From positions 25,925 to 89,924 of the forward strand of contig FR902135.1 in assembly GCA_000437895.1 (NCBI GenBank): a stretch of 64,000 bases of DNA, read 5' to 3'. Both the position numbers and the translations under genes were made by a program. This stretch comes from Clostridium sp. CAG:914. GTDB taxonomy: Bacteria > Bacillota_I > Bacilli_A > RF39 > UBA660. Below the pieces are notes generated by a model, which saw only the letters and a program-made list of their open reading frames with translations, searched no databases and was not told the DNA's origin. This document shows, one piece after another, positions 39,921-50,629 of this stretch (positions are counted from its first letter, which is position 1; each line of letters starts with the position of its first letter).

Positions 39921-39977
39921 TATTAAATAATAGTTAATTTATTTAAATATTTGACATATAATTTATTGGGTGAAAAA

Positions 39978-40604
39978 ATGAAAAAAATTTATTTGTTACT
40001 ATTATTCTTTTTAATTCCTCTTAATGTATCTGCAGATGAGCTTAATTTGGCTGAGAATGCTAAATCTGCTATTATGATTGAAGCTACTACGGGAGAAATA
40101 CTTTATAAAAAGAATGAAAAAGAGAGACTTGCTCCAGCATCAATGACAAAAATTATGTCATTAATTCTTATTATGGAAAATATTGAAAGTGGTAAACTTA
40201 AATGGAATGATATTGTAGTAACGTCTAATTATGCTTCTAGTATGGGTGGAAGTCAAGTTTTTTTAAAGCCTAATGAAATTATGAGTGTTGAAGATTTAAT
40301 TAAGGCTATTTGTGTTGCTTCTGCTAATGATGCTACGGTGGCTATGGCTGAGAAAATTGCTGGTACAGAAAAAGCTTTTGTTAAATTAATGAATGATAAG
40401 GCAAAGGAACTTGGAGCTGTAAATACTAATTTTGTTAATTCTACTGGATTACCTGCTAAAGATCATTATTCGACAGCTTATGATATGTCTATTATGGCAA
40501 AGGAACTTATTAGACATGAAAAAATTTTGAGTTTTACAAAGATATATGAAGATTATTTGAGAAAGAATACATCTAATAGTTTTTGGCTTGTAAATACTAA
40601 TAAA
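39978..40604 (+). pseudogene. D-alanyl-D-alanine carboxypeptidase (PBP5/DacB-DacF-like), 5' segment, split by a mobile element
   Basis: Signal peptide, SMTK (SxxK) and SAND (SxN). The homologous sequence ends at ...FWLVNTNK, after which the frame runs 13 codons into element DNA and stops at 40643. Confidence 0.85.
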
Positions 40605-40613
40605 GTCGTATAT

Positions 40614-40651
40614 AAAAATTACTATAGTGAAAAATTGCTATAGTAATTTTT
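40614..40651. repeat. Perfect 14-bp inverted repeat at the element's left end
   Basis: aaaaattactatag (40614-40627) and ctatagtaattttt (40638-40651) with a 10-nt spacer. Related palindrome aatactatagtatt at 40714-40727. Confidence 0.8.
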
Positions 40652-40794
40652 CTTTATATTTAGATTGTTTTTTGAAATGTTAATATACCAATAAAAAATA
40701 ATTGTGTGTGAATAATACTATAGTATTTTGGAATAATTTGGAAGTTTATTCGTATAATTAGATGAATCAAAGTAGAGAAAAAGGAGGTAGATAT

Positions 40795-40899
40795 ATGATT
40801 CAGTTATGCGAAGAGTTGGAATTAGAAATAATGAAGTTTTTCTTGAAAACTAGTATTCCAAAAATTATTAATGAAAGGAAAGGTATTACTTCTAAATAG
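40795..40899 (+). CDS. Small ORF upstream of the recombinase (34 aa, not in the track)
   Basis: MIQLCEELELEIMKFFLKTSIPKIINERKGITSK with a strong RBS aaaggagg at 40779-40786. Function unknown. Confidence 0.35.
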   Translation: MIQLCEELELEIMKFFLKTSIPKIINERKGITSK

Positions 40900-40919
40900 A
40901 AAAAGGAGTGATATTAACT

Positions 40920-42353
40920 ATGCTTATAAATACAGCGATCTATGTTAGAGTGTCTACGGAAGAGCAAGCTACGGAAGGGTTTAGTATTCATGCGCAAAAA
41001 GATAAGCTTACTAAATATGCAGAAGTAAGTGATTATAACATCGTAGACTATTATATTGATGATGGTATAAGTGGTAAGAATTTAAATGAAAGGCCTGAAG
41101 TTACAAGATTAATTAACGATGTAAAATCAGGTAAAATTAATAATGTTTTAGTATATAAGTTAGATAGATTAACTAGAAGTGTTAAAGATCTAATTTATTT
41201 AATAGAACTATTTGATAAATATAATTGTACTTTCAATTCTCAAACAGAGAAAATTGATACTTCAAATGCAGTAGGTAGAATGTTTGTTAAAATTATAGGG
41301 ATATTTGCTGAATTTGAAAGAGAGAATTTAGCTGAGAGAGTAACTTTTGGATATGAACAAAAAACTAAAGAAGGTAATTATACAAATTGTAATGGGGTAT
41401 TTGGTTATGATTATTTAGTTGGTAAAGGTAAATTAATTGTTAATAAAGAAGAATCTTACTATGTAAAAAAAATATATGAGTGGTATTTAGAAGGGGATTC
41501 AATGTTAAAAATTGCTAAGAAATTAAAAGATTTAAATGTTCCTACTAAAAGAGGGGGACATTGGAATCAATCTACAATCAATTCAATTTTAAATAATCCT
41601 CTTTATATTGGAAATATTAGATATGGTGTTAATAAGAAAAATAACTTTGAAGTAGTTGGTAAAGACATAACAGGAATTATTGATAAGGATATGTTTTATG
41701 GTGTTCAAGAATTAATGAAGAGGCGAAAGAAATTTCATAATAAGAAATATTCTTCAGACGATACCTATTATTTTAGGGTACTTAGATGTAGTTATTGTAA
41801 TGGAAAATATCATGTTAGACAACAAGTTCAAAGTGGTAAGAAATATATTACTTATAGATGTAATGGACATCATAATAATAGCTGTAATGCTCCAGGATTT
41901 TCCCATTATAAATTAGAGGATTCTTTCTTAAAATACTTAGATAATATTAAAGACTTCAAATTTAATAGGAAAATATTAAAGAAAGAAGATAAATTAAACG
42001 AAGAAGAAGTTAATAAGATAAAACAAGAAATAGATAAATTGAATAGAAAAAAGATAGATGCAACAGAATTATTTTCTATAGACGAAATAGATTATGAAAC
42101 ATTAAAAAATATTAAAGAGGTAGTTGATTCAAAAATAAGTGTATTAAGTAAAGAGTTAGAGTTAATAGATACTAAGGAAGAAGATATAATAGAAACAAAT
42201 GAAGAGTTAATAAAAGAAATAATTGTTAATTTAAAGAGTAATTTTATTAAGTTAAATAATCATGAGAAAAAGATGTTTTTAGAAAGATTTGTTAAAGAGA
42301 TAAGAGTTAAAAAGGAAGGAGATGAAGTTATGATAGAAAGTGTTGTATTTTGA
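40920..42353 (+). CDS. Large serine recombinase (SpoIVCA/phage-integrase type)
   Basis: AIYVRVSTEEQ (catalytic Ser), resolvase domain LVYKLDRLTRS, recombinase domain, Zn-ribbon CSYCNGKY...YRCNGHHNNSC, and a coiled-coil tail. ATG at 40920 preferred over the GTG at 40908, which lies inside the RBS. Confidence 0.9.
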   Translation: MLINTAIYVRVSTEEQATEGFSIHAQKDKLTKYAEVSDYNIVDYYIDDGISGKNLNERPEVTRLINDVKSGKINNVLVYKLDRLTRSVKDLIYLIELFDKYNCTFNSQTEKIDTSNAVGRMFVKIIGIFAEFERENLAERVTFGYEQKTKEGNYTNCNGVFGYDYLVGKGKLIVNKEESYYVKKIYEWYLEGDSMLKIAKKLKDLNVPTKRGGHWNQSTINSILNNPLYIGNIRYGVNKKNNFEVVGKDITGIIDKDMFYGVQELMKRRKKFHNKKYSSDDTYYFRVLRCSYCNGKYHVRQQVQSGKKYITYRCNGHHNNSCNAPGFSHYKLEDSFLKYLDNIKDFKFNRKILKKEDKLNEEEVNKIKQEIDKLNRKKIDATELFSIDEIDYETLKNIKEVVDSKISVLSKELELIDTKEEDIIETNEELIKEIIVNLKSNFIKLNNHEKKMFLERFVKEIRVKKEGDEVMIESVVF

Positions 42354-42382
42354 TTGATTTAAGAACAAATGTTTGATATAAT
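42354..42382 (+). promoter_or_regulatory. Near-consensus sigma-A promoter inside the element
   Basis: ttgatt, 17 nt, tataat. It would give a ~165-nt leader before the Bro-N gene. Confidence 0.5.
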
Positions 42383-42555
42383 TAAATTGATATTAGAGCC
42401 TAACCTCACTTAGTACGGGGAATATTAGTTTTTGATTTTAATTTAAGTGTCGGGCAAAATAAATTCGAAAGGAGAAGACTTGTAGTAATACGAGTAAGCT
42501 AGGGTAACAACACATAACGCCTTAGTATAAAAAACAACAAGAAGGAGGTAAAATT

Positions 42556-43413
42556 TTGAAAGAAAATAAAATAGATACTATTACAAATTTATTTGAGGGT
42601 AGCGAAATAAGAAGTATTTGGGATAGTGAAAAAGAAGATTATTATTTTAGTGTAGTTGATGTTATTAGTGCATTAACTAATGCTAATATTCCAAGAAATT
42701 ATTGGAGTGATTTAAAAAGAAAATTAAAAGAGGAAGGAAGTGAGTTGCACGAAAAAATCGTGCAACTGAAATTGTTGTCAAAAAAAGATAATAAAAACTA
42801 TCTAACTGATGTATTGGATACTGAAGGGATATTTAGACTTATTGAATCAGTTCCTAGTCCTAAAGCAGAACCTTTTAAAATGTGGTTAGCATCTTTAGGA
42901 AAAGAAAGAATAGATGAAGTATTTGATCCTGAAAAAGCAATTGATAGAGCAATTGATTATTATCGTAAGAAAGGTTATTCAGATAGTTGGATTGAAGTAA
43001 GATTAAAAGGAATTCTTAATCGTAAGAAGTTAACAGATGTGTGGAAAGAAAATGGCATTACTGAAAATTATGAATATGCAATGTTAACAAATGAGATTTA
43101 TAAAACTTGGTCTGGTATGAAGGCTACTGAATATAAAGAATTTAAAGGTATTAGAAAAGAATCCTTAAGAGATAATATGACGGATATAGAAGTAATACTT
43201 ACTGACTTAGGAGAGGTAACAGCAAGAGATATAGCTAAACAAGAAAGACCTCAAGGTTTAAAAGATAATTTAAAAGTTGCTAAAAGAGGTGGAGATGTAT
43301 CTAAAATAGCAAGAGAATCTTATGAAATACAAACAGGTAGAAGTGCTATAACTAGTGAAAATGCAATTGGTGGAAGATATGTTGATACTAATAAGCAATT
43401 AAAAGAAAAATAA
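42556..43413 (+). CDS. Bro-N domain protein (DinD/antirepressor-like)
   Basis: TTG start after aaggagg. FEGSEIRSIWDSEKEDYYFSVVDVISALT is Bro-N-like, and the C-terminal half is conserved in the family. Confidence 0.7.
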   Translation: MKENKIDTITNLFEGSEIRSIWDSEKEDYYFSVVDVISALTNANIPRNYWSDLKRKLKEEGSELHEKIVQLKLLSKKDNKNYLTDVLDTEGIFRLIESVPSPKAEPFKMWLASLGKERIDEVFDPEKAIDRAIDYYRKKGYSDSWIEVRLKGILNRKKLTDVWKENGITENYEYAMLTNEIYKTWSGMKATEYKEFKGIRKESLRDNMTDIEVILTDLGEVTARDIAKQERPQGLKDNLKVAKRGGDVSKIARESYEIQTGRSAITSENAIGGRYVDTNKQLKEK

Positions 43414-43528
43414 TATTAAAGATGCAAACAGTGTAGAAAAAACTACATTGTTTTTTAGTTGTACGATTTTTTCGTACAACTAAATTAGAAAGGAAGATGA
43501 TATATGAGAAAAATAAAATTAGAAAGAA

Positions 43529-44056
43529 GTGAATTATATAGATAAATATGTTATGGTATACGCATATGTACCAGAACATTTTTTATCTTGTAAGGAGTTA
43601 TCTTATTTAGATAAATTAGTTTACATTAGAATAGTTGGTTTCTGTAGAAATGAAGAATACAATTATAGTTGTTTTGCAAGTAATAAATATTTTGCTAAAT
43701 TATTTGGAGTATCTCCAAAATCTATATCAGTAACAATTGGTAAATTAAAAAGATTAGGTTATATAAATGTTACATATTTAAGAAACGATACTTTAATTAG
43801 GGAAAGAAGTATTACTTTAACAAGTAATGTGTGGTGTAATTTAAGTAACAGTGATACTTTAATTGAGGAACCTACTATTCCTCAAAAGATGGAATATAAT
43901 AATAAGTTTAATAATAATAAAATATTAAATAATATTATATCTTACGATACTGATGGAGTTATGTTATGGCACGGAAAAAGATGTGAAGCTACACCAGCAA
44001 GTCCAGAAGAACAAAAAGAAATGGAAGAGTTATTAAGTAGATTTGACATTTTATAA
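43529..44056 (+). CDS. Winged-helix/HTH protein (replication-initiator or regulator-like)
   Basis: SNKYFAKLFGVSPKSISVTIGKLKRLGYI. The start is uncertain (GTG at 43529 or ATG at 43553). Confidence 0.5.
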   Translation: MNYIDKYVMVYAYVPEHFLSCKELSYLDKLVYIRIVGFCRNEEYNYSCFASNKYFAKLFGVSPKSISVTIGKLKRLGYINVTYLRNDTLIRERSITLTSNVWCNLSNSDTLIEEPTIPQKMEYNNKFNNNKILNNIISYDTDGVMLWHGKRCEATPASPEEQKEMEELLSRFDIL

Positions 44057-44088
44057 AAATTTATTTATTATTTAAGTATAGAGTAGAG

Positions 44089-44127
44089 CGCTAGTACATG
44101 CTTAATGGTTTTGTGCTGGCGTTTTTT
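44089..44127 (+). terminator. Rho-independent terminator
   Basis: 10-bp stem cgctagtaca/tgtgctggcg (two G.U pairs) followed by tttttt. Confidence 0.6.
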
Positions 44128-44549
44128 CTTTAGAATGTGAGGTGATTAATAAAAAAATAAAACATCCATAAATCATCCATAATTTATTTTTAAAATATAA
44201 GTTTATGGAAAAAACAATGGTTTATAAAAGTACTTATAAAATAAGGACTTGTTATATACTGGCTCTATAAAGTTACCATAATTTAGTAATTTTTATGGAG
44301 GATTTTGCAAGTGCAAAATAAGATTTGATATCATTATAAATACATATAGAATAAGGATTTAATATATTAAATGATATCAATTCCCTTATCCTACTTTTAT
44401 AAACTAATTGAAAAATACAAAAAAATATGAAAGAGAGGTAGATGTGTATCGGGTTATTCCCTATAAAAGAAAGGAAAGTTTTTATTGTTTAGAATTAGAT
44501 TAAATTTATTATGTAAGGAGTTATTTGTTATTTAAGATAGAGGATTATT

Positions 44550-45056
44550 TTGAGAGAAGATAACATCTTAGGATACAAAAACTTAATATATAAAATTTTA
44601 TCTCACTATAGAATTGTTTATAATTATAATAGAGACTTTGAAGAAGATTATTTTCATGAAGGGATGGTAGCTCTTATTCAGGCACATGATAGTTACAAAG
44701 AAGACAATAATGTTAAATTTATAACTTATGCTTCAAGATGTATTCATAATAGATATAGAGATATCTTTAAAAGAAAATATTTTAATGAGGAACCATTAGA
44801 TGTAGAAATTAAGGAAGATTTATATTTATTAGACATTATTCCTTCTAAAGAAGAAAAAATGCTTGATAAGTTAATAAGAGAAGAAACTAAAGAAGAATTA
44901 GAAAAATCTATTAAGAATTTATCTGTAGAAGATAATATTATTATATGTGGTTTATATGGTATTAAAACAAAGAAAATAACTCAAAAGAGATTAGCAAAAC
45001 AATTAGGTTGTACTCAAAGTTGTATTGCTAAAAAACATAATAAAATATTAATCTAA
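44550..45056 (+). CDS. Small sigma-70 family sigma factor (regions 2 and 4 only)
   Basis: 168 aa, TTG start. EGMVALIQAHDSYK..FITYASRCIHNRY (region 2) and C-terminal HTH QKRLAKQLGCTQSCIAKKHNK (region 4). Confidence 0.7.
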   Translation: MREDNILGYKNLIYKILSHYRIVYNYNRDFEEDYFHEGMVALIQAHDSYKEDNNVKFITYASRCIHNRYRDIFKRKYFNEEPLDVEIKEDLYLLDIIPSKEEKMLDKLIREETKEELEKSIKNLSVEDNIIICGLYGIKTKKITQKRLAKQLGCTQSCIAKKHNKILI

Positions 45057-45063
45057 TTAAAGG

Positions 45064-45095
45064 GAATCTAAAATATTAAAATTTAGATTCTTTTT
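45064..45095 (+). terminator. Rho-independent terminator
   Basis: Perfect stem gaatctaaa/tttagattc followed by ttttt. Confidence 0.7.
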
Positions 45096-45141
45096 ATTTA
45101 TAATATGCTATAATAAAATAAATGAGGAGTGATGTAATATT

Positions 45142-45624
45142 ATGATACAGGGTAAAAAAAATAAAGGTGTTGAAAATATAATAGGATTATTATTAATAGT
45201 TCCAATTTATTTAATTTGTTTTTTTATTAGTAGATTTATTGATTTATCGTTTTTATCTTATAATATGAGTATGCTATTACCAGGGATTTTAATGTATTTA
45301 CCTATAGGTATTGGTTTGATATTAGTATATAAGTTTTATAATGACAAAATAAATAAGTTAGTTTTTAATATTAATTTGATTTTTTTAGGAATTACTTTTT
45401 ATTATTATTATAGTTTTAATTTGGTTGAACATGATGGTTGGGATGGACTTGGATTTGGTATTTTATGGTATTTAAATTCTTTTGTTTGTAGAGTTTTATC
45501 TGTTATTCTATATAAAAATATCGTTGGTTGGAAAAAAGCGTTATCTTTTGTTGCTATTTTTATATTATTATTTATAGTCATGTATGCGATAGGTTTTTTA
45601 TTATATGAATTTTCGGGTATTTAA
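45142..45624 (+). CDS. Polytopic membrane protein, unknown function (last gene of the element)
   Basis: 160 aa with 4-5 predicted TM helices. Confidence 0.5.
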   Translation: MIQGKKNKGVENIIGLLLIVPIYLICFFISRFIDLSFLSYNMSMLLPGILMYLPIGIGLILVYKFYNDKINKLVFNINLIFLGITFYYYYSFNLVEHDGWDGLGFGILWYLNSFVCRVLSVILYKNIVGWKKALSFVAIFILLFIVMYAIGFLLYEFSGI

Positions 45625-45708
45625 TTATTTGATTAAATAAAAAAATTATTGTATCATTTCATTAGAAGTGATACCTTTTTACTATAGCAATATTCACATA
45701 CAATCAAA

Positions 45709-46224
45709 TTAGTAAGATTTTATGATTATATAGATGGATTAAAGACAGGATTTACTGATGATGCAGGGTATTGTTTAACGGCTACGGGTAAAAAGGGGAA
45801 TATGAGACTTATTACTGTTGTTATGAAAGAAGATAATACTGATAATAGGACAAAAGATACGATTGCTATGATGGATTATGGTTTTAATATGTATAGTGTT
45901 AAGAATATTATTTCAAAAGGTAATAAGATTGGTAATATATATATAAATTTAGGTAAGGAAGAATATGCTGATATTTCTTCTTTAGAGGATATTAATATTG
46001 TTAATAGTAATCAAGATAATGAAGCTAAATTTACTTATGAAATAGAAACTGATAATGTTACAGCACCTTTAAGTAAGGGGAGTGTTGTTGGTAAAATAAC
46101 AGTGTATAAGGATGGAAAATATTTTAATTCAAGTGATTTAATTATAACTAAGAATATAAAGAAAGCAAATATTGTTAAAGTTTTTTTTAGAAATATAAAA
46201 GATGTTTTAGTAGGATCTATGTAA
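45709..46224 (+). pseudogene. D-alanyl-D-alanine carboxypeptidase, 3' segment (KTG motif plus PBP5 C-terminal domain)
   Basis: The frame opens at tta 45709 as LVRFYDYIDGLKTGFTDDAGYCLTATGKKGNMRLITVVM... This is the same frame as track ORF 45802-46224. Joined to 40604 it gives ~380 aa. Confidence 0.85.
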
Positions 46225-46251
46225 TATAGATCTTTTCTTTTCATAATATTT
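46208..46251. repeat. 44-bp perfect direct repeat, copy A (dac 3' end plus its terminator)
   Basis: tagtaggatctatgtaatatagatcttttcttttcataatattt is identical to 48501-48544. It contains the hairpin gatctat/atagatc plus a T-run. Confidence 0.95.
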
Positions 46252-46449
46252 GTAAAACAAAAATGTTTTTTGAGTAATAAAGATTTGTCATATTAGATAA
46301 ATTATTAATAGATTTTTGTTTGAAAGAATATGTATATATTAATGAAAGTATATTGAAACTGATAATTTTGTTAAGCAATTGTTTTATTATTTAATTTCAA
46401 ATTGTAGATTTTTTGTTAGAATTTTTATACAATATAATTATCTTATTAA

Positions 46450-46999
46450 ATGGAGTTAATTCTTTATGGAACAAGATATTGTAAATACTTTAATGGAGAT
46501 AGTATTACTTATGGACTAGAAAATAATGAATATTTTGGTTTGTATAATAGATTAAGAATAATGATATGCTCAAACAATTTTATTTTTATCTAAGTATTTT
46601 TGGACAAAGTTCATGTGAAATTGAAATGGAACTTAAGAATAGAATTAATAATACTGATATATTTAATATATTCTTTGCTTTTGAAATAAAAGATGTTTTG
46701 AAATTAAAAAATAATAAAGAATATATCAAAGTTTTCAGAAAAATGTTGTTAAATTAATTAATATTGCAAAGAAATATACTGATAGAATTTACTTTTTGGG
46801 ATTACTTAATGTTGATATAAAAATTAAAATTGAGTATAATCAAGACGTTATTAACCAAATTACTGAATTATTAAAATTTCTTTGTAAATATAAAGATGTT
46901 GTTTTTTTGAGTATGTCAGGGGTAGTAAATCAAAATAATTTATTTGATGGATTACATCCAAATCAAGTTGTTCATGAAAAAATAAGTAAATATATATAA
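46450..46999 (+). pseudogene. SGNH/GDSL hydrolase pseudogene (frameshifted)
   Basis: Block I FNGDSITYG (46489-46515) in one frame and the catalytic block DGLHPN in track ORF 46796-46999. The gene is split across three frames by stops. Confidence 0.6.
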
Positions 47000-47078
47000 T
47001 ATCCTTTTTAGCAAGTAAAGTCCTAAATATGTCACTTTTAAAAAATGCACATTTGTAAAAAAATGTATATTTGTAAAA

Positions 47079-47515
47079 AAAGGTATTGACTTTGAATTCC
47101 AAGTATATTGGGGATGCGATTTAAAAAGTGAACATGAAAGATATTTGACAGATGTAATCTATAAAAAACCTTTATTCATAATAAATTACCCAAAAGAATT
47201 GAAATCATTTTATATGAAGCAAATCCAGACGGAAGAACTGTTGCTTCAACTGATTTATTAGTTCCTGGGATTGGTGAACTTATAGGAGCAAGCCAAAGGG
47301 AAGATAATTTTGAGTTATTGAAAAAGAGAATTGAAGAATTAAATATGACGGAAGAAGATTATTATTGGTATTTAGATTTAAGAAAATATGGGACAGTTCC
47401 TCATAGCGGTTTTGGTATCGGTTTCGAAAGATTAATAATGTATACTACTGGAATGACAAATATTAGGAATGTCAGTGCTTTTCCGAGAACAAAGTGTAAA
47501 AAACTTAAATTGTAA
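47079..47515 (+). pseudogene. asnS: Asparagine--tRNA ligase 3' fragment (truncated, frameshifted)
   Basis: [21 protein letters not shown]...[12 protein letters not shown], a 1-nt frameshift near 47222, then [26 protein letters not shown]...[15 protein letters not shown]...FPRT. There is no N-terminal or catalytic core upstream. Confidence 0.75.
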
Positions 47516-47553
47516 TTAAGGTTAATAATGAAAGGAGAACTTAAGATATTTAT

Positions 47554-48366
47554 ATGAAAAAAATAGTAGCAATTGGTGGTGGCGAAAATGGAAGATTTCT
47601 TGAGGATGGAAGTCAAACTATGTATGAAACAGAAATAATGGATGAAGAAATTATCAAATTAACTAACAAGAAGAATCCTAATTATTTGTTTCTTGCTCAT
47701 GCAATGTGTTTTTCCGATAAAATACAAGATAGTTATTATGAAACTATGAAGAAAATATATGGTGATAAATATGGATGTAGTTGTAAATGTTTAAAAGCAA
47801 GTGACCTGTATAATAAGAAATTTGTAAAAGAATTAGTAGATTGGGCAGATATTATTTACGAAGGCGGTGGCGATACAAAAGCCATGATAAAGCTTTGGAA
47901 AAAAACAGAATTTGATATTATATTAAGAGAAGCATGGAATAGTGGAAAGGTTATATGTGGTATTTCAGCAGGTGCAGTTTGTTGGTTTAATTCTTGTAAC
48001 TCAGATAATGAAGAGATGCAATTTGAATCTATAGAATGTTTAAATTGGTTTGATGTTTTTGTTACTCCACATTGTGATGAAGAGGGAAGATATGAGTCAA
48101 CTAAAAGTCAACTGAAAGAAAATAAAATGTTGGGGCTTATGTTATCTAATTGTTCGGCAATTGAAATTGTTGACGACAAATATAAAATAATTTCTTGTAA
48201 TGGTATTGGTAGAAATTTTGAAAAAGGGTATGTTTTAAAATGTTACTGGAAAAATAATAAATATTATGAAGAAAGGTTAGAAGAAAGTGATAAATATAAA
48301 ATGCTAAATGAATTATTTAGTACAAATATAATGAATTTAGAAAGTGAAGAAAGTAGTATAGATTAA
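47554..48366 (+). CDS. Peptidase S51 (dipeptidase E-like) family protein
   Basis: IVAIGGGENG, IYEGGGDTKAM and CGISAGAVCW (nucleophile Ser). Confidence 0.6.
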   Translation: MKKIVAIGGGENGRFLEDGSQTMYETEIMDEEIIKLTNKKNPNYLFLAHAMCFSDKIQDSYYETMKKIYGDKYGCSCKCLKASDLYNKKFVKELVDWADIIYEGGGDTKAMIKLWKKTEFDIILREAWNSGKVICGISAGAVCWFNSCNSDNEEMQFESIECLNWFDVFVTPHCDEEGRYESTKSQLKENKMLGLMLSNCSAIEIVDDKYKIISCNGIGRNFEKGYVLKCYWKNNKYYEERLEESDKYKMLNELFSTNIMNLESEESSID

Positions 48367-48439
48367 CATTTTATTAGAGAAATAATTTATTGTATTTCTA
48401 TATTGAGTATAATAATCAAATTAAAAAAGATTTAATTTA

Positions 48440-48500
48440 TAAATTTCTATGGTATTATTTCATTTATAAGTGATATCTTTTACTATAACAATATTTATAT
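48440..48500. repeat. Second, diverged copy of the element's right arm (attR-like)
   Basis: ggtattatttcatttataagtgatatcttttactataacaatatttatatataattaaac aligns at roughly 80% identity (by eye) with 45650-45708. Confidence 0.75.
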
Positions 48501-48544
48501 ATAATTAAACTAGTAGGATCTATGTAATATAGATCTTTTCTTTT
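48501..48544. repeat. 44-bp perfect direct repeat, copy B
   Basis: Identical to 46208-46251. Read with the preceding aaac it encodes K-L-V-G-S-M-stop, i.e. the last codons of dac. Confidence 0.95.
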
Positions 48545-48569
48545 CATAATATTTATTAAAGGAGATGTT

Positions 48570-50518: not shown

Positions 50519-50629
50519 ATATTCCTCCTTATATAATTATATTTTGGACAAAAAAGATAAAATTATTCATCATAATAGTAAAATAATTCCATATACTTCA
50601 ATAGAAAAGATTAAATAAGAGGTGAAATA

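Follow-up and report, generated by a model that had tools for sequence, protein, structure and literature searches.

Within the 64-kb stretch analyzed here (hereafter, the window, in which all coordinates are given), which comes from contig FR902135.1 of Clostridium sp. CAG:914 and is very AT-rich (GC content 26%), a gene for a D,D-carboxypeptidase of the PBP5 type (hereafter, dac) is interrupted by an insert of 5,104 bp (positions 40604-45707) with a GC content of 24.6%, near the host value. The insert is very probably an integrative cassette, not a phage, and owes its movement to a large serine recombinase (LSR). We are more confident still of the core of this account, namely, that the LSR inserted the element at the AA dinucleotide of an attachment site (attB) within dac, that the insertion truncates Dac before its KTG motif, that the element belongs to a mobile and modular family, and that the insertion is reversible in silico.

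The gene is interrupted after codon 209 (window position 40604), and the remaining 171 codons restart at position 45709 and end at 46224:
39978..40604, + strand: 5' part of dac, residues 1-209, matching positions 10-196 of the Peptidase_S11 profile (Pfam, E = 3.1e-60)
45709..46224, + strand: 3' part of dac, residues 210-380, matching Peptidase_S11 positions 203-238 and then PBP5_C (Pfam, E = 3.6e-13)
The 5' part encodes a signal peptide and the SMTK and SAND motifs and ends with FWLVNTNK, whereas the 3' part starts with LVRFYDYIDGLKTG and supplies KTG followed by the PBP5 C-terminal domain. In the window as it stands, KTG is parted from the other two motifs, and the unexcised 5' part reads through to a stop at 40643, giving a truncated product of 221 amino acids. 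Because Peptidase_S11 positions 10-196 and 203-238, and then PBP5_C, are matched in successive pieces, the two parts are contiguous portions of one gene; this contradicts the alternative, considered in an earlier note on this DNA, that the halves derive from different paralogues.

When joined in silico, the halves yield a protein of 380 amino acids that is identical to the intact metagenome proteins P0001 and P0002 and 99-100% identical to more than 100 further intact variants from gut metagenomes, in agreement, at the sequence level, with the enzyme of about 380 residues that the note had expected from precise excision. The rebuilt protein is predicted to be a PBP5-type peptidase of family S11, with SMTK at residue 55, SAND at residue 115, KTG at residue 221 and both the PF00768 and PF07943 domains. 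The window minus the insert aligns to natural empty sites in a single high-scoring segment pair that spans the junction; in the case of the empty-site locus L011, the virtually excised window is 99.66% identical over 7,156 bp with 0 gaps. Natural empty sites carry GTAAATACTAATAAATTAGTAAGATTT at the junction, an exact match to the rejoined junction predicted in the note, AATACTAATAAATTAGTAAGATTT. The open reading frames (ORFs), their translations and the Pfam matches likewise bear out its description of dac as split by a 5.1-kb LSR element with the recombinase gene adjoining the left end of the insert. Its term “split in frame” holds for the reading frame that is restored after excision but not for the insert itself, the length of which is no multiple of 3. 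Identical junctions recur in dozens of independent assemblies, which rules out an assembly artefact.

The anatomy of the attachment (att) sites was derived from about 25 left and 15 right junctions of different species and maps onto the window as follows:
40580..40630, + strand: attL, with host half GTAAATACTAATAA, crossover AA at 40602-40603 and element arm AGTCGTATATAAAAATTACTATAGTG, aligned to the empty site
45680..45735, + strand: attR, with element arm TACTATAGCAATATTCACATACAATC, crossover AA at 45706-45707 and host half ATTAGTAAGATTTTATG, aligned to the empty site
40701..40725, + strand: second attP-arm-like copy, ATTGTGTGTGAATAATACTATAGTA (inverted repeat I7), 88% complementary to the attR arm
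The consensus of the host side of the junctions is TGGCTTGTWAATACWAATAA|A...TTAGTAAGATTT, and the element sides read A-GTCGTRTAY..AAAWTRCTATAGT and TACTATAGCAATATTCAYATACAAWTAA. In three loci (L032, L039 and L041), the base following AA differs between attL and attR, which places the crossover at the AA dinucleotide. The attB site contains a perfect 7-bp dyad, TACTAAT-AA-ATTAGTA, and codes for the conserved WLVNTNK|LV motif, 12 codons ahead of KTG. The arms of attP are roughly 25 bp long and agree at 18 of 26 positions, and the predicted attP junction sequence is ATATTCACATACAATCAAAGTCGTATATAAAAATTAC. As in other LSR systems, the sites are short, with imperfect dyads and a shared central dinucleotide, AA, across about 25 species, and the predicted attB (~40 bp) and attP (~50 bp) are a canonical LSR site pair. 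The second arm-like copy abuts the recombinase promoter, and in the minimal elements L032, L036 and L042, its counterpart itself serves as the attL arm.

Apart from the att sites and the promoter considered below, the insert contains the following features:
40795..40899, + strand: orf34, encoding a 34-amino-acid protein with the core LEIMKFFLxTSVPKIL, directly upstream of the LSR gene in every family member
40920..42353, + strand: LSR of 477 amino acids (Pfam Resolvase, 9.7e-42; Recombinase, 9.6e-23; Zn_ribbon_recom, 5.3e-07)
42556..43413, + strand: Bro-N domain protein of 285 amino acids (Pfam Bro-N, 1.1e-11), matching the PADLOC family PDC-S13 over nearly its full length (E = 5.7e-112)
43529..44056, + strand: winged-helix HTH_36 protein (Pfam HTH_36, 6.3e-09; replication-initiation families of PHROGs)
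44057..44549, no strand: non-coding region of 0.5 kb with paired direct repeats at 44165/44264 and 44225/44335 (repeat search, D3 and D14)
44550..45056, + strand: small sigma-70-family factor of 168 amino acids (Pfam Sigma70_r2; TIGR02937, 64.9 bits)
45142..45624, + strand: predicted multi-pass membrane protein of 160 amino acids, of no family
45651..45674, + strand: terminator-like hairpin with a T-run just inside attR (terminator scan), conserved in the family as GTATCATTTCAT..GTGATACC

The LSR gene, with its start codon called at ATG 40920, encodes the domain succession typical of its class, that is, an N-terminal catalytic domain (PF00239, positions 2-144 of 145) followed by the Recombinase domain (PF07508) and a zinc beta-ribbon (PF13408). 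The context of the predicted catalytic serine, Ser12 in YVRVSTEEQ, appears intact, as noted previously. Among PHROGs, the protein matches the PHROG 95 integrases (5e-126); the nearest relative of its catalytic domain is the TP901-1 integrase (122.7 bits), and SprA of SPbeta is remote (43.6 bits), a point at odds with the skin-like picture in the note. The PHROGs matches in the insert are limited to the integrase, regulators, the replication-initiator-like protein and the sigma factor, and the same scan detected no virion, packaging, lysis or conjugation genes. Given this profile, devoid of virion genes, and the mere 37% identity to the closest phage integrase, the insert is not a phage; a temperate phage or prophage was also rejected on account of the 5.1-kb size.

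The product of orf34 is a candidate directionality or accessory factor. PDC-S13, which the Bro-N protein matches, is a candidate defence family in PADLOC; the exact sequence of this protein is present on 160 contigs. The HTH_36 protein resembles the N-termini of phage and plasmid replication initiators, and the adjacent repeat-bearing region is a possible origin or regulatory region; an Rfam search of 39-48 kb gave no match. The best named matches of the sigma factor are SigK and SigE, with scores far under the cut-offs (60 bits against 252 for SigK, NF004471), and the membrane protein retrieved nothing in Pfam, NCBIfam, PHROGs or PADLOC. A generic scan for sigma-70 promoters and terminators is uninformative at 25% GC (71 sites against 77 expected), and only two terminator hairpins were kept.

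The element of the window belongs to a widespread family. Scanning one genome per species, we found 33 loci in metagenome-assembled genomes (MAGs) labelled uncultured Bacilli, Tenericutes and Mycoplasmatota, in Clostridium sp. CAG:1193, in Mycoplasma sp. CAG:611 and in Candidatus Scybalousia sp. (the name “Candidatus Scybalousia” is a homonym, and the Bacilli taxon is now Alloscybalousia). Two element-bearing contigs, L022 and L027, sit in MAGs named Bacteroides helcogenes and Vescimonas coprocola, probably because of binning contamination. Wherever the upstream flank is present, an LSR 70-97% identical to that of the window lies directly behind residue 209 of the N-terminal part of Dac (DacN), and the C-terminal part (DacC) follows 0.06-9 kb past the LSR; some 30 species of uncultured gut Bacilli with low GC have the same dac site occupied. 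The cassettes range from about 1.7 to more than 10 kb and share the orf34-LSR module in a fixed order (arm, 34-amino-acid ORF, LSR, then terminator and arm), whereas the cargo varies. At the lower extreme, in L034, DacC starts 63 bp after the LSR, and the element nearest to it is little more than orf34 and the LSR. In that locus (L034:4744-9485), 3 kb without a recombinase lies between the dac halves ahead of the minimal orf34-LSR unit, and a Bro-N gene is found just outside, past dac.

Loci L014 and L037 encode LSRs 96-97% identical to that of the window and cargo 95-98% identical, whereas the host DacN sequences are just 56-57% identical, which implies recent transfer over genus-level distances. 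The sole close IMG/VR match to the LSR (96%) is L077, a chromosomal fragment with dac flanks; the other match is only 27% identical. The LSR gene is broken in two loci, by a frameshift in L039:8001-9463 and by an internal deletion in L042:8001-9218, and in both of these, the adjoining DacN frame is intact. Indeed, neither dac half contains a frameshift or stop in any occupied locus.

Occupancy is also polymorphic within the species (all figures are counts of contigs rather than de-replicated genomes). Intact dac alleles are present on at least 727 contigs, and the exact 140-amino-acid 3' fragment, which is called separately only if dac is split, on 550 contigs (955 index blocks); roughly 40% of the contigs of the species carry a split dac. 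Strains with the element type of the window have flanks that are 0-0.7% apart and are interleaved with empty-site strains on the flank tree, so the element was gained or lost more than once. The upstream 178-amino-acid allele of the window is found on 18 contigs, every one with the element of the window. A sister clade with flanks ~97.4% identical contains other elements, with an LSR 76% identical, the cargo of which includes two class-Ib tRNA synthetases, a set of NUDIX, HhH-GPD, methyltransferase, UDG and deoxyribosyltransferase genes, and RelA/SpoT homologues together with genes for radical-SAM proteins, an S66 peptidase and a glycosyltransferase. Tandem arrays, from 11 to more than 20 kb, are also found at the same site in this clade, and in them a decayed internal attP-like junction parts a recombinase-less segment from a complete element.

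In the same species, the cassettes of loci L050-L059 and L069-L076, again at the dac site, contain housekeeping-like cargo, for example, two class-Ib tRNA synthetases, RelA/SpoT homologues, an archaeal-type AdoMet synthase and, between two elements, Gmk, Ham1, PRT and Vut_1 genes; these are either very large composite arrays or captured chromosomal genes. In addition, a second, unrelated LSR of 557-563 amino acids (24-27% identical) cuts dac at the active-site motif SAN|D (SxN), in L021:2394-4067, L029:5345-7036 and L077:2451-4133 and, in the species of the window, as fragments P0125/P0126. This recombinase lies at the right end of its own element, its ORF crossing its own junction into dac sequence, and in some genomes, dac is interrupted twice, by both LSR families.

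The connection of these elements to sporulation can be approached through the hosts, the gene context and the promoters. RF39 and parts of RFN20 and ML615J-28 are predicted spore-formers (Field et al., PMC10868615), although the supplement of that study has no dac entries. In agreement with this prediction, core sporulation genes lie only a few kb from dac in related hosts with the same insertion. L033 encodes SpoVAC, AD and AEb (TIGR02838, 172.9 bits, cut-off 164; TIGR02839, 139.9 bits, cut-off 131.1), L019 encodes SpoVAD (423 against 402), and L041 encodes a full-length SigG-like sigma factor that scores 361.7 against a cut-off of 372 and passes the SigB/F/G subfamily model. As separate observations on the neighborhood, six ORFs from the upstream flanks of dac in related species have matches to the D,D-carboxypeptidase family of the VanY type (M15), and the ORF immediately upstream of dac in L026 has a weak match to the sporulation membrane protein YtvI (108 bits against 198).

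Two promoter-like elements with a common architecture bear on the same question:
39935..39962, + strand: dac promoter-like element, TAATTTA-N13-CATATAAT, a sigma-E-type two-block motif
40731..40758, + strand: promoter of the orf34-LSR operon, GAATAAT-N13-CGTATAAT, with conserved blocks and spacing
Upstream sequences of dac from 22 species, otherwise unalignable, were compared. In 20 of the 22, CATAnnnT(TTA) is located at a fixed distance directly before the ribosome-binding site, and in 14, AT[AT] occurs 18 nt upstream of CATAnnnT, compared to 1-5 species at any other offset. The combined motif is kmATAww-N13-CATAnnnT, with examples such as TCATAAA, GTATAAA and GTAATAA paired with CATACATT and CATACTAT. 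The B. subtilis consensus for sigma-E is kmATATT, a spacer of ~14 and CATACAhT, and that for sigma-K is AC-N17-CATAnnnTA. In C. difficile, sigma-E and sigma-K promoters have a common -10 element and differ at -35, ATA against AC (Saujet et al., PMC3789822), and the dacB-spmAB genes of B. subtilis are under sigma-E (PMC517825). The dac motif looks sigma-E-like by comparison with these consensus sequences. For want of AC at -35, a sigma-K promoter was rejected, and the lack of GnATR at 15-18 nt led to the rejection of a sigma-G or sigma-F promoter; the spoVA promoter of L033, GAATA-N17-CATAATA, is by contrast a textbook forespore type.

The orf34-LSR promoter is even more uniform: in 18 of 20 element variants, the blocks GAATATT (or GAATAAT) and CGTATAAT do not change, nor does the 13-nt distance between them, whereas the spacer sequence varies freely. 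Against the sigma-E consensus, which is that of B. subtilis and thus distant from the host, it matches at 7 of 7 positions at -35 and 6 of 8 at -10; if it is read as a sigma-A promoter, the spacer is 19 nt. In the window, kmATAww-N13-CATAnnnT also precedes the gene for a ferritin-like protein of 165 amino acids (48525-48552) and that for a YdcC/GerS-like lipoprotein (50570-50597), which suggests that dac, the ferritin-like gene and the lipoprotein gene form a small co-regulated, possibly mother-cell, cluster. The lipoprotein scores under the family cut-offs, and the identity of the ferritin-like protein as CotJC could not be shown, its matches being bacterioferritin-like structures and a weak one to Mn_catalase. 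Elsewhere in the window, ordinary TTGATA-N17-TATAAT promoters are found, for example, before FemAB. The loose two-block motif is not enriched across the window (22 occurrences against 29 in shuffles), so only its positional conservation before orthologous genes counts as evidence.

From these features, we infer that dac may here be a mother-cell (sigma-E-type) sporulation gene, and the following scenario can be proposed. The LSR joined attP to attB within the dac coding sequence, with crossover at AA, truncating Dac ahead of KTG, and the exact reversal of this recombination rebuilds an intact dac in silico. The orf34-LSR operon would be transcribed from a sigma-E-like promoter with the same architecture as that of dac, so that the element could use a mother-cell gene as a safe harbour: excision in the sporulating mother cell would restore Dac for cortex synthesis, while the spore, that is, the forespore chromosome, would keep the element. 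Excision in the mother cell would account for the commonness of interrupted alleles, for both halves being free of frameshifts and stops in occupied loci, and for two recombinase families favouring dac. We consider developmental timing of excision a serious possibility, although one that falls a little short of an even chance. More tentative yet is the generalization to a widespread clade of uncultured, reduced-genome human-gut Bacilli, in which the cortex D,D-carboxypeptidase gene, a mother-cell gene, would be routinely interrupted by as many as two unrelated LSR families and by tandem arrays, and a sigma-E-driven 34-amino-acid factor, together with the LSR, would excise everything between the outer att sites.

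Several observations weigh against developmental timing. No attP (circle) junction was detected with exact or degenerate patterns in Joint Genome Institute (JGI) metagenome contigs, IMG/VR or the fetched loci, although this null result is weak, given that the majority of carriers reside in ENA/Logan assemblies and that rare circles are not assembled, and none of the empty sites examined is on a haplotype identical to that of the window. To integrate, a mobile element must express its integrase outside sporulation as well. Summary scans of 24 proteins of the window against Pfam and NCBIfam recognized no sporulation-specific family; the genes of the window are housekeeping ones (NrdD, ClpP, SecDF, RelA, EzrA, sortase, FemAB, RNase J), and the neighbors of dac encode a metallo-beta-lactamase-fold hydrolase, the 178-amino-acid protein of unknown function, the ferritin-like protein and FemAB, a context that is neither dacB-spmA-spmB nor dacF-spoIIAA-spoIIAB-sigF. 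In a sequence comparison that covered DacB among the sporulation paralogues, Dac scores 138.5 bits against B. subtilis DacB (3mfd), below its scores against Gram-negative PBP5s (4k91, 214; E. coli PBP5, 163). As for the promoters, the -10 element of orf34-LSR has G where sigma-E and sigma-K have A and contains TATAAT, which makes a sigma-A reading possible; the proposed -10 element of dac would place the transcript start within the Shine-Dalgarno region; and the assignments lean on B. subtilis and C. difficile consensus sequences applied to an uncultured lineage. Thus, the sporulation link suggested in the earlier note gains plausibility from spoVA and SigG in related hosts, from the sigma-E-type dac motif and from the uniform orf34-LSR promoter, but not from the dac context or the gene content of the window.

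The most competitive alternative is plain insertional knock-out, whereby a selfish element sits in a conserved stretch of dac, carriers lack the carboxypeptidase, and excision is sporadic, serving transfer only, without developmental timing. Low-molecular-weight PBPs are usually dispensable, so that the loss would be tolerated, or else the cargo would pay for it. Disruption of conserved genes is common among LSR elements, and one target gene is often reached convergently by distant LSRs (PMC10083194); the present family is mobile, polymorphic and cargo-bearing, as a selfish element would be, and the missing excision junctions, the broken recombinases of L039 and L042, and the perfect TATAAT inside the LSR promoter all fit a knock-out. 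What such a knock-out does not readily explain is that both halves stay intact everywhere even though ~40% of the contigs are split, that two unrelated LSR families hit dac, and that dac and the recombinase operon share two-block promoters of a non-sigma-A kind while ordinary TTGACA-N17-TATAAT promoters exist elsewhere in the window. On its own, the knock-out, too, comes close to an even chance without reaching it; the present evidence favours neither it nor developmental excision, and we regard the two as about equally likely.

It is unlikely, by comparison, that the element is a phage satellite or mobilisable island, the excision of which is set off by a helper phage or conjugative element, with Bro-N as an antirepressor, helper functions usurped by the Rep-like protein and the sigma factor, and the dac site being incidental; this idea can overlap with either developmental excision or the plain knock-out. 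The combination of Bro-N, a replication-initiator-like winged-helix protein, a small sigma factor and repeat-rich non-coding DNA does resemble the toolkits of satellites and integrative and mobilisable elements, and the element has neither transfer nor capsid genes of its own. However, minimal family members such as that in L034 consist of little beyond orf34 and the LSR, so that cargo varies across the family; a helper was not identified; the sole close IMG/VR match proved to be a chromosomal dac locus; and Bro-N matches a candidate defence family, not a characterised antirepressor. Finally, a domesticated, immobile intervening sequence, inherited vertically and kept as a relic that serves as a developmental switch like B. 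subtilis skin, is effectively excluded because, notwithstanding the stable inheritance in one lineage that is implied by the 18 contigs with the upstream 178-amino-acid allele, near-identical LSRs and cargo occur in hosts with Dac just 56% identical, strains with and without the element are intermingled in the flank tree, several elements and arrays share the site in one species, and the att arms and LSR are intact. Rather than a domesticated skin-like relic, the element is a member of a family that is horizontally mobile, polymorphic, variable in cargo and prone to tandem stacking, a point that departs from the picture in the earlier note.

If excision of the cassette is timed by sporulation, a peptidoglycan-maturation gene would join the short list of developmentally rearranged sporulation genes, and the phenomenon would extend to uncultured gut lineages in which sporulation is predicted; junction reads would then allow sporulation in vivo to be tracked without culture. 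The elements would then represent a minimal portable module for developmental excision, the mobile cargo of which rides the germ line without cost to spore quality. Even without developmental control, dac is a major hotspot of variation between strains of a species that is abundant in the human gut. Its cargo comprises, among others, a candidate defence gene, extra tRNA synthetases, RelA/SpoT homologues and DNA-modification genes, and metagenome binning and gene catalogues will often miscall the split dac as two fragments. The ~1.7-kb module of an LSR and a 34-amino-acid partner, with defined attB and attP and many natural variants, also provides material for studies of directionality and for integrase tools.

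Two other regions of the window are worth mentioning. From the end of dac onwards, a 47-bp direct repeat (46205-46251 and 48510-48556), which comprises the last 7 dac codons, intergenic DNA and CATAATATTT, flanks a 2.26-kb segment (indel 46252-48509) that is missing from strains L049, L004 and L079. Within this segment lie, at 47318-47515, a fragment of a tRNA-synt_2 (Asn/Asp-RS-like) gene and, at 47554-48366, a Peptidase_S51 gene. The sequence at the right end of the segment, TTACTATAACAATATTTATATATAATTAAA (48480-48509), is similar to the attR arm of the dac element; possibly, the segment represents a decayed cassette in a secondary site. Through the 47-bp repeat, the promoter-like motif of the ferritin-like gene is present twice. 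At ~16-20 kb, a TadA/VirB11-type secretion ATPase gene and an N-methyl pilin-like gene (Pfam T2SSE and N_methyl; NCBIfam TadA/VirB11) indicate a putative type IV pilus or Tad-like locus in a reduced genome.

Among the known systems, the closest in concept are the LSR elements that intervene in sporulation genes, namely, skin in sigK, SPbeta in spsM, vfbin in spoVFB, gin in gerE and yin in yabG (PMC5595907, PMC4191935, PMC5025042, PMC10747680). Their recombinases include SpoIVCA of skin, SprA/SprB of SPbeta and GirC/GirX of gin, the latter being a non-phage example (PMC5595907). Like the skin, SPbeta and gin elements, the dac element lies within an ORF with its recombinase at one end, and its exact excision rebuilds the gene, the ORF predicted by in silico removal being that of the natural intact alleles P0001 and P0002; the target may have a mother-cell-type promoter, and the recombinase operon may be read from a sigma-E-like one, as spoIVCA is. 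The dac cassettes differ in being very small, in swapping cargo, stacking in tandem and crossing genera, in having, unlike SPbeta, a TP901-1-like LSR, and in their hosts, which are uncultured, reduced-genome gut Bacilli in which sporulation is only predicted (PMC10868615). Sporulation-specific excision being the defining feature of this group, membership cannot be granted to the dac element. In open-access full text, we found no report of dac as a target or of such elements in these lineages.

Active lysogeny, as in the A118-like phage in comK of Listeria and Phi13 in hlb of S. aureus, likewise combines insertion into an ORF with precise excision as a switch, but those elements are complete phages, whereas the dac element is without virion genes. 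In its population biology, the dac family is most reminiscent of the staphylococcal cassette chromosome (SCC) elements with ccrAB or ccrC at rlmH, which are also non-phage, non-conjugative LSR cassettes at one conserved site, with variable cargo, tandem composites and spread across species. The best named NCBIfam match of the LSR is CcrB, at 184.8 bits against a cut-off of 900 (CcrC, 144 against 900), and membership in SCC is excluded by these cut-offs and by the site: the dac site is in the middle of the ORF (codon 209 of 380), and the gene is destroyed, whereas SCC inserts at the 3' end of rlmH (orfX) and spares it. The dac element also differs in having a single recombinase with a 34-amino-acid partner. 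Finally, the dac elements resemble those of the dusA-specific integrases (PMC4482086) and the LSR target-gene clusters of Durrant et al. (PMC10083194) in that, across many species, a family of elements with diverse cargo integrates into a single conserved coding sequence as its attB; the dusA integrases, however, are tyrosine recombinases, and their elements restore the 5' end of the gene, whereas dac is truly split.

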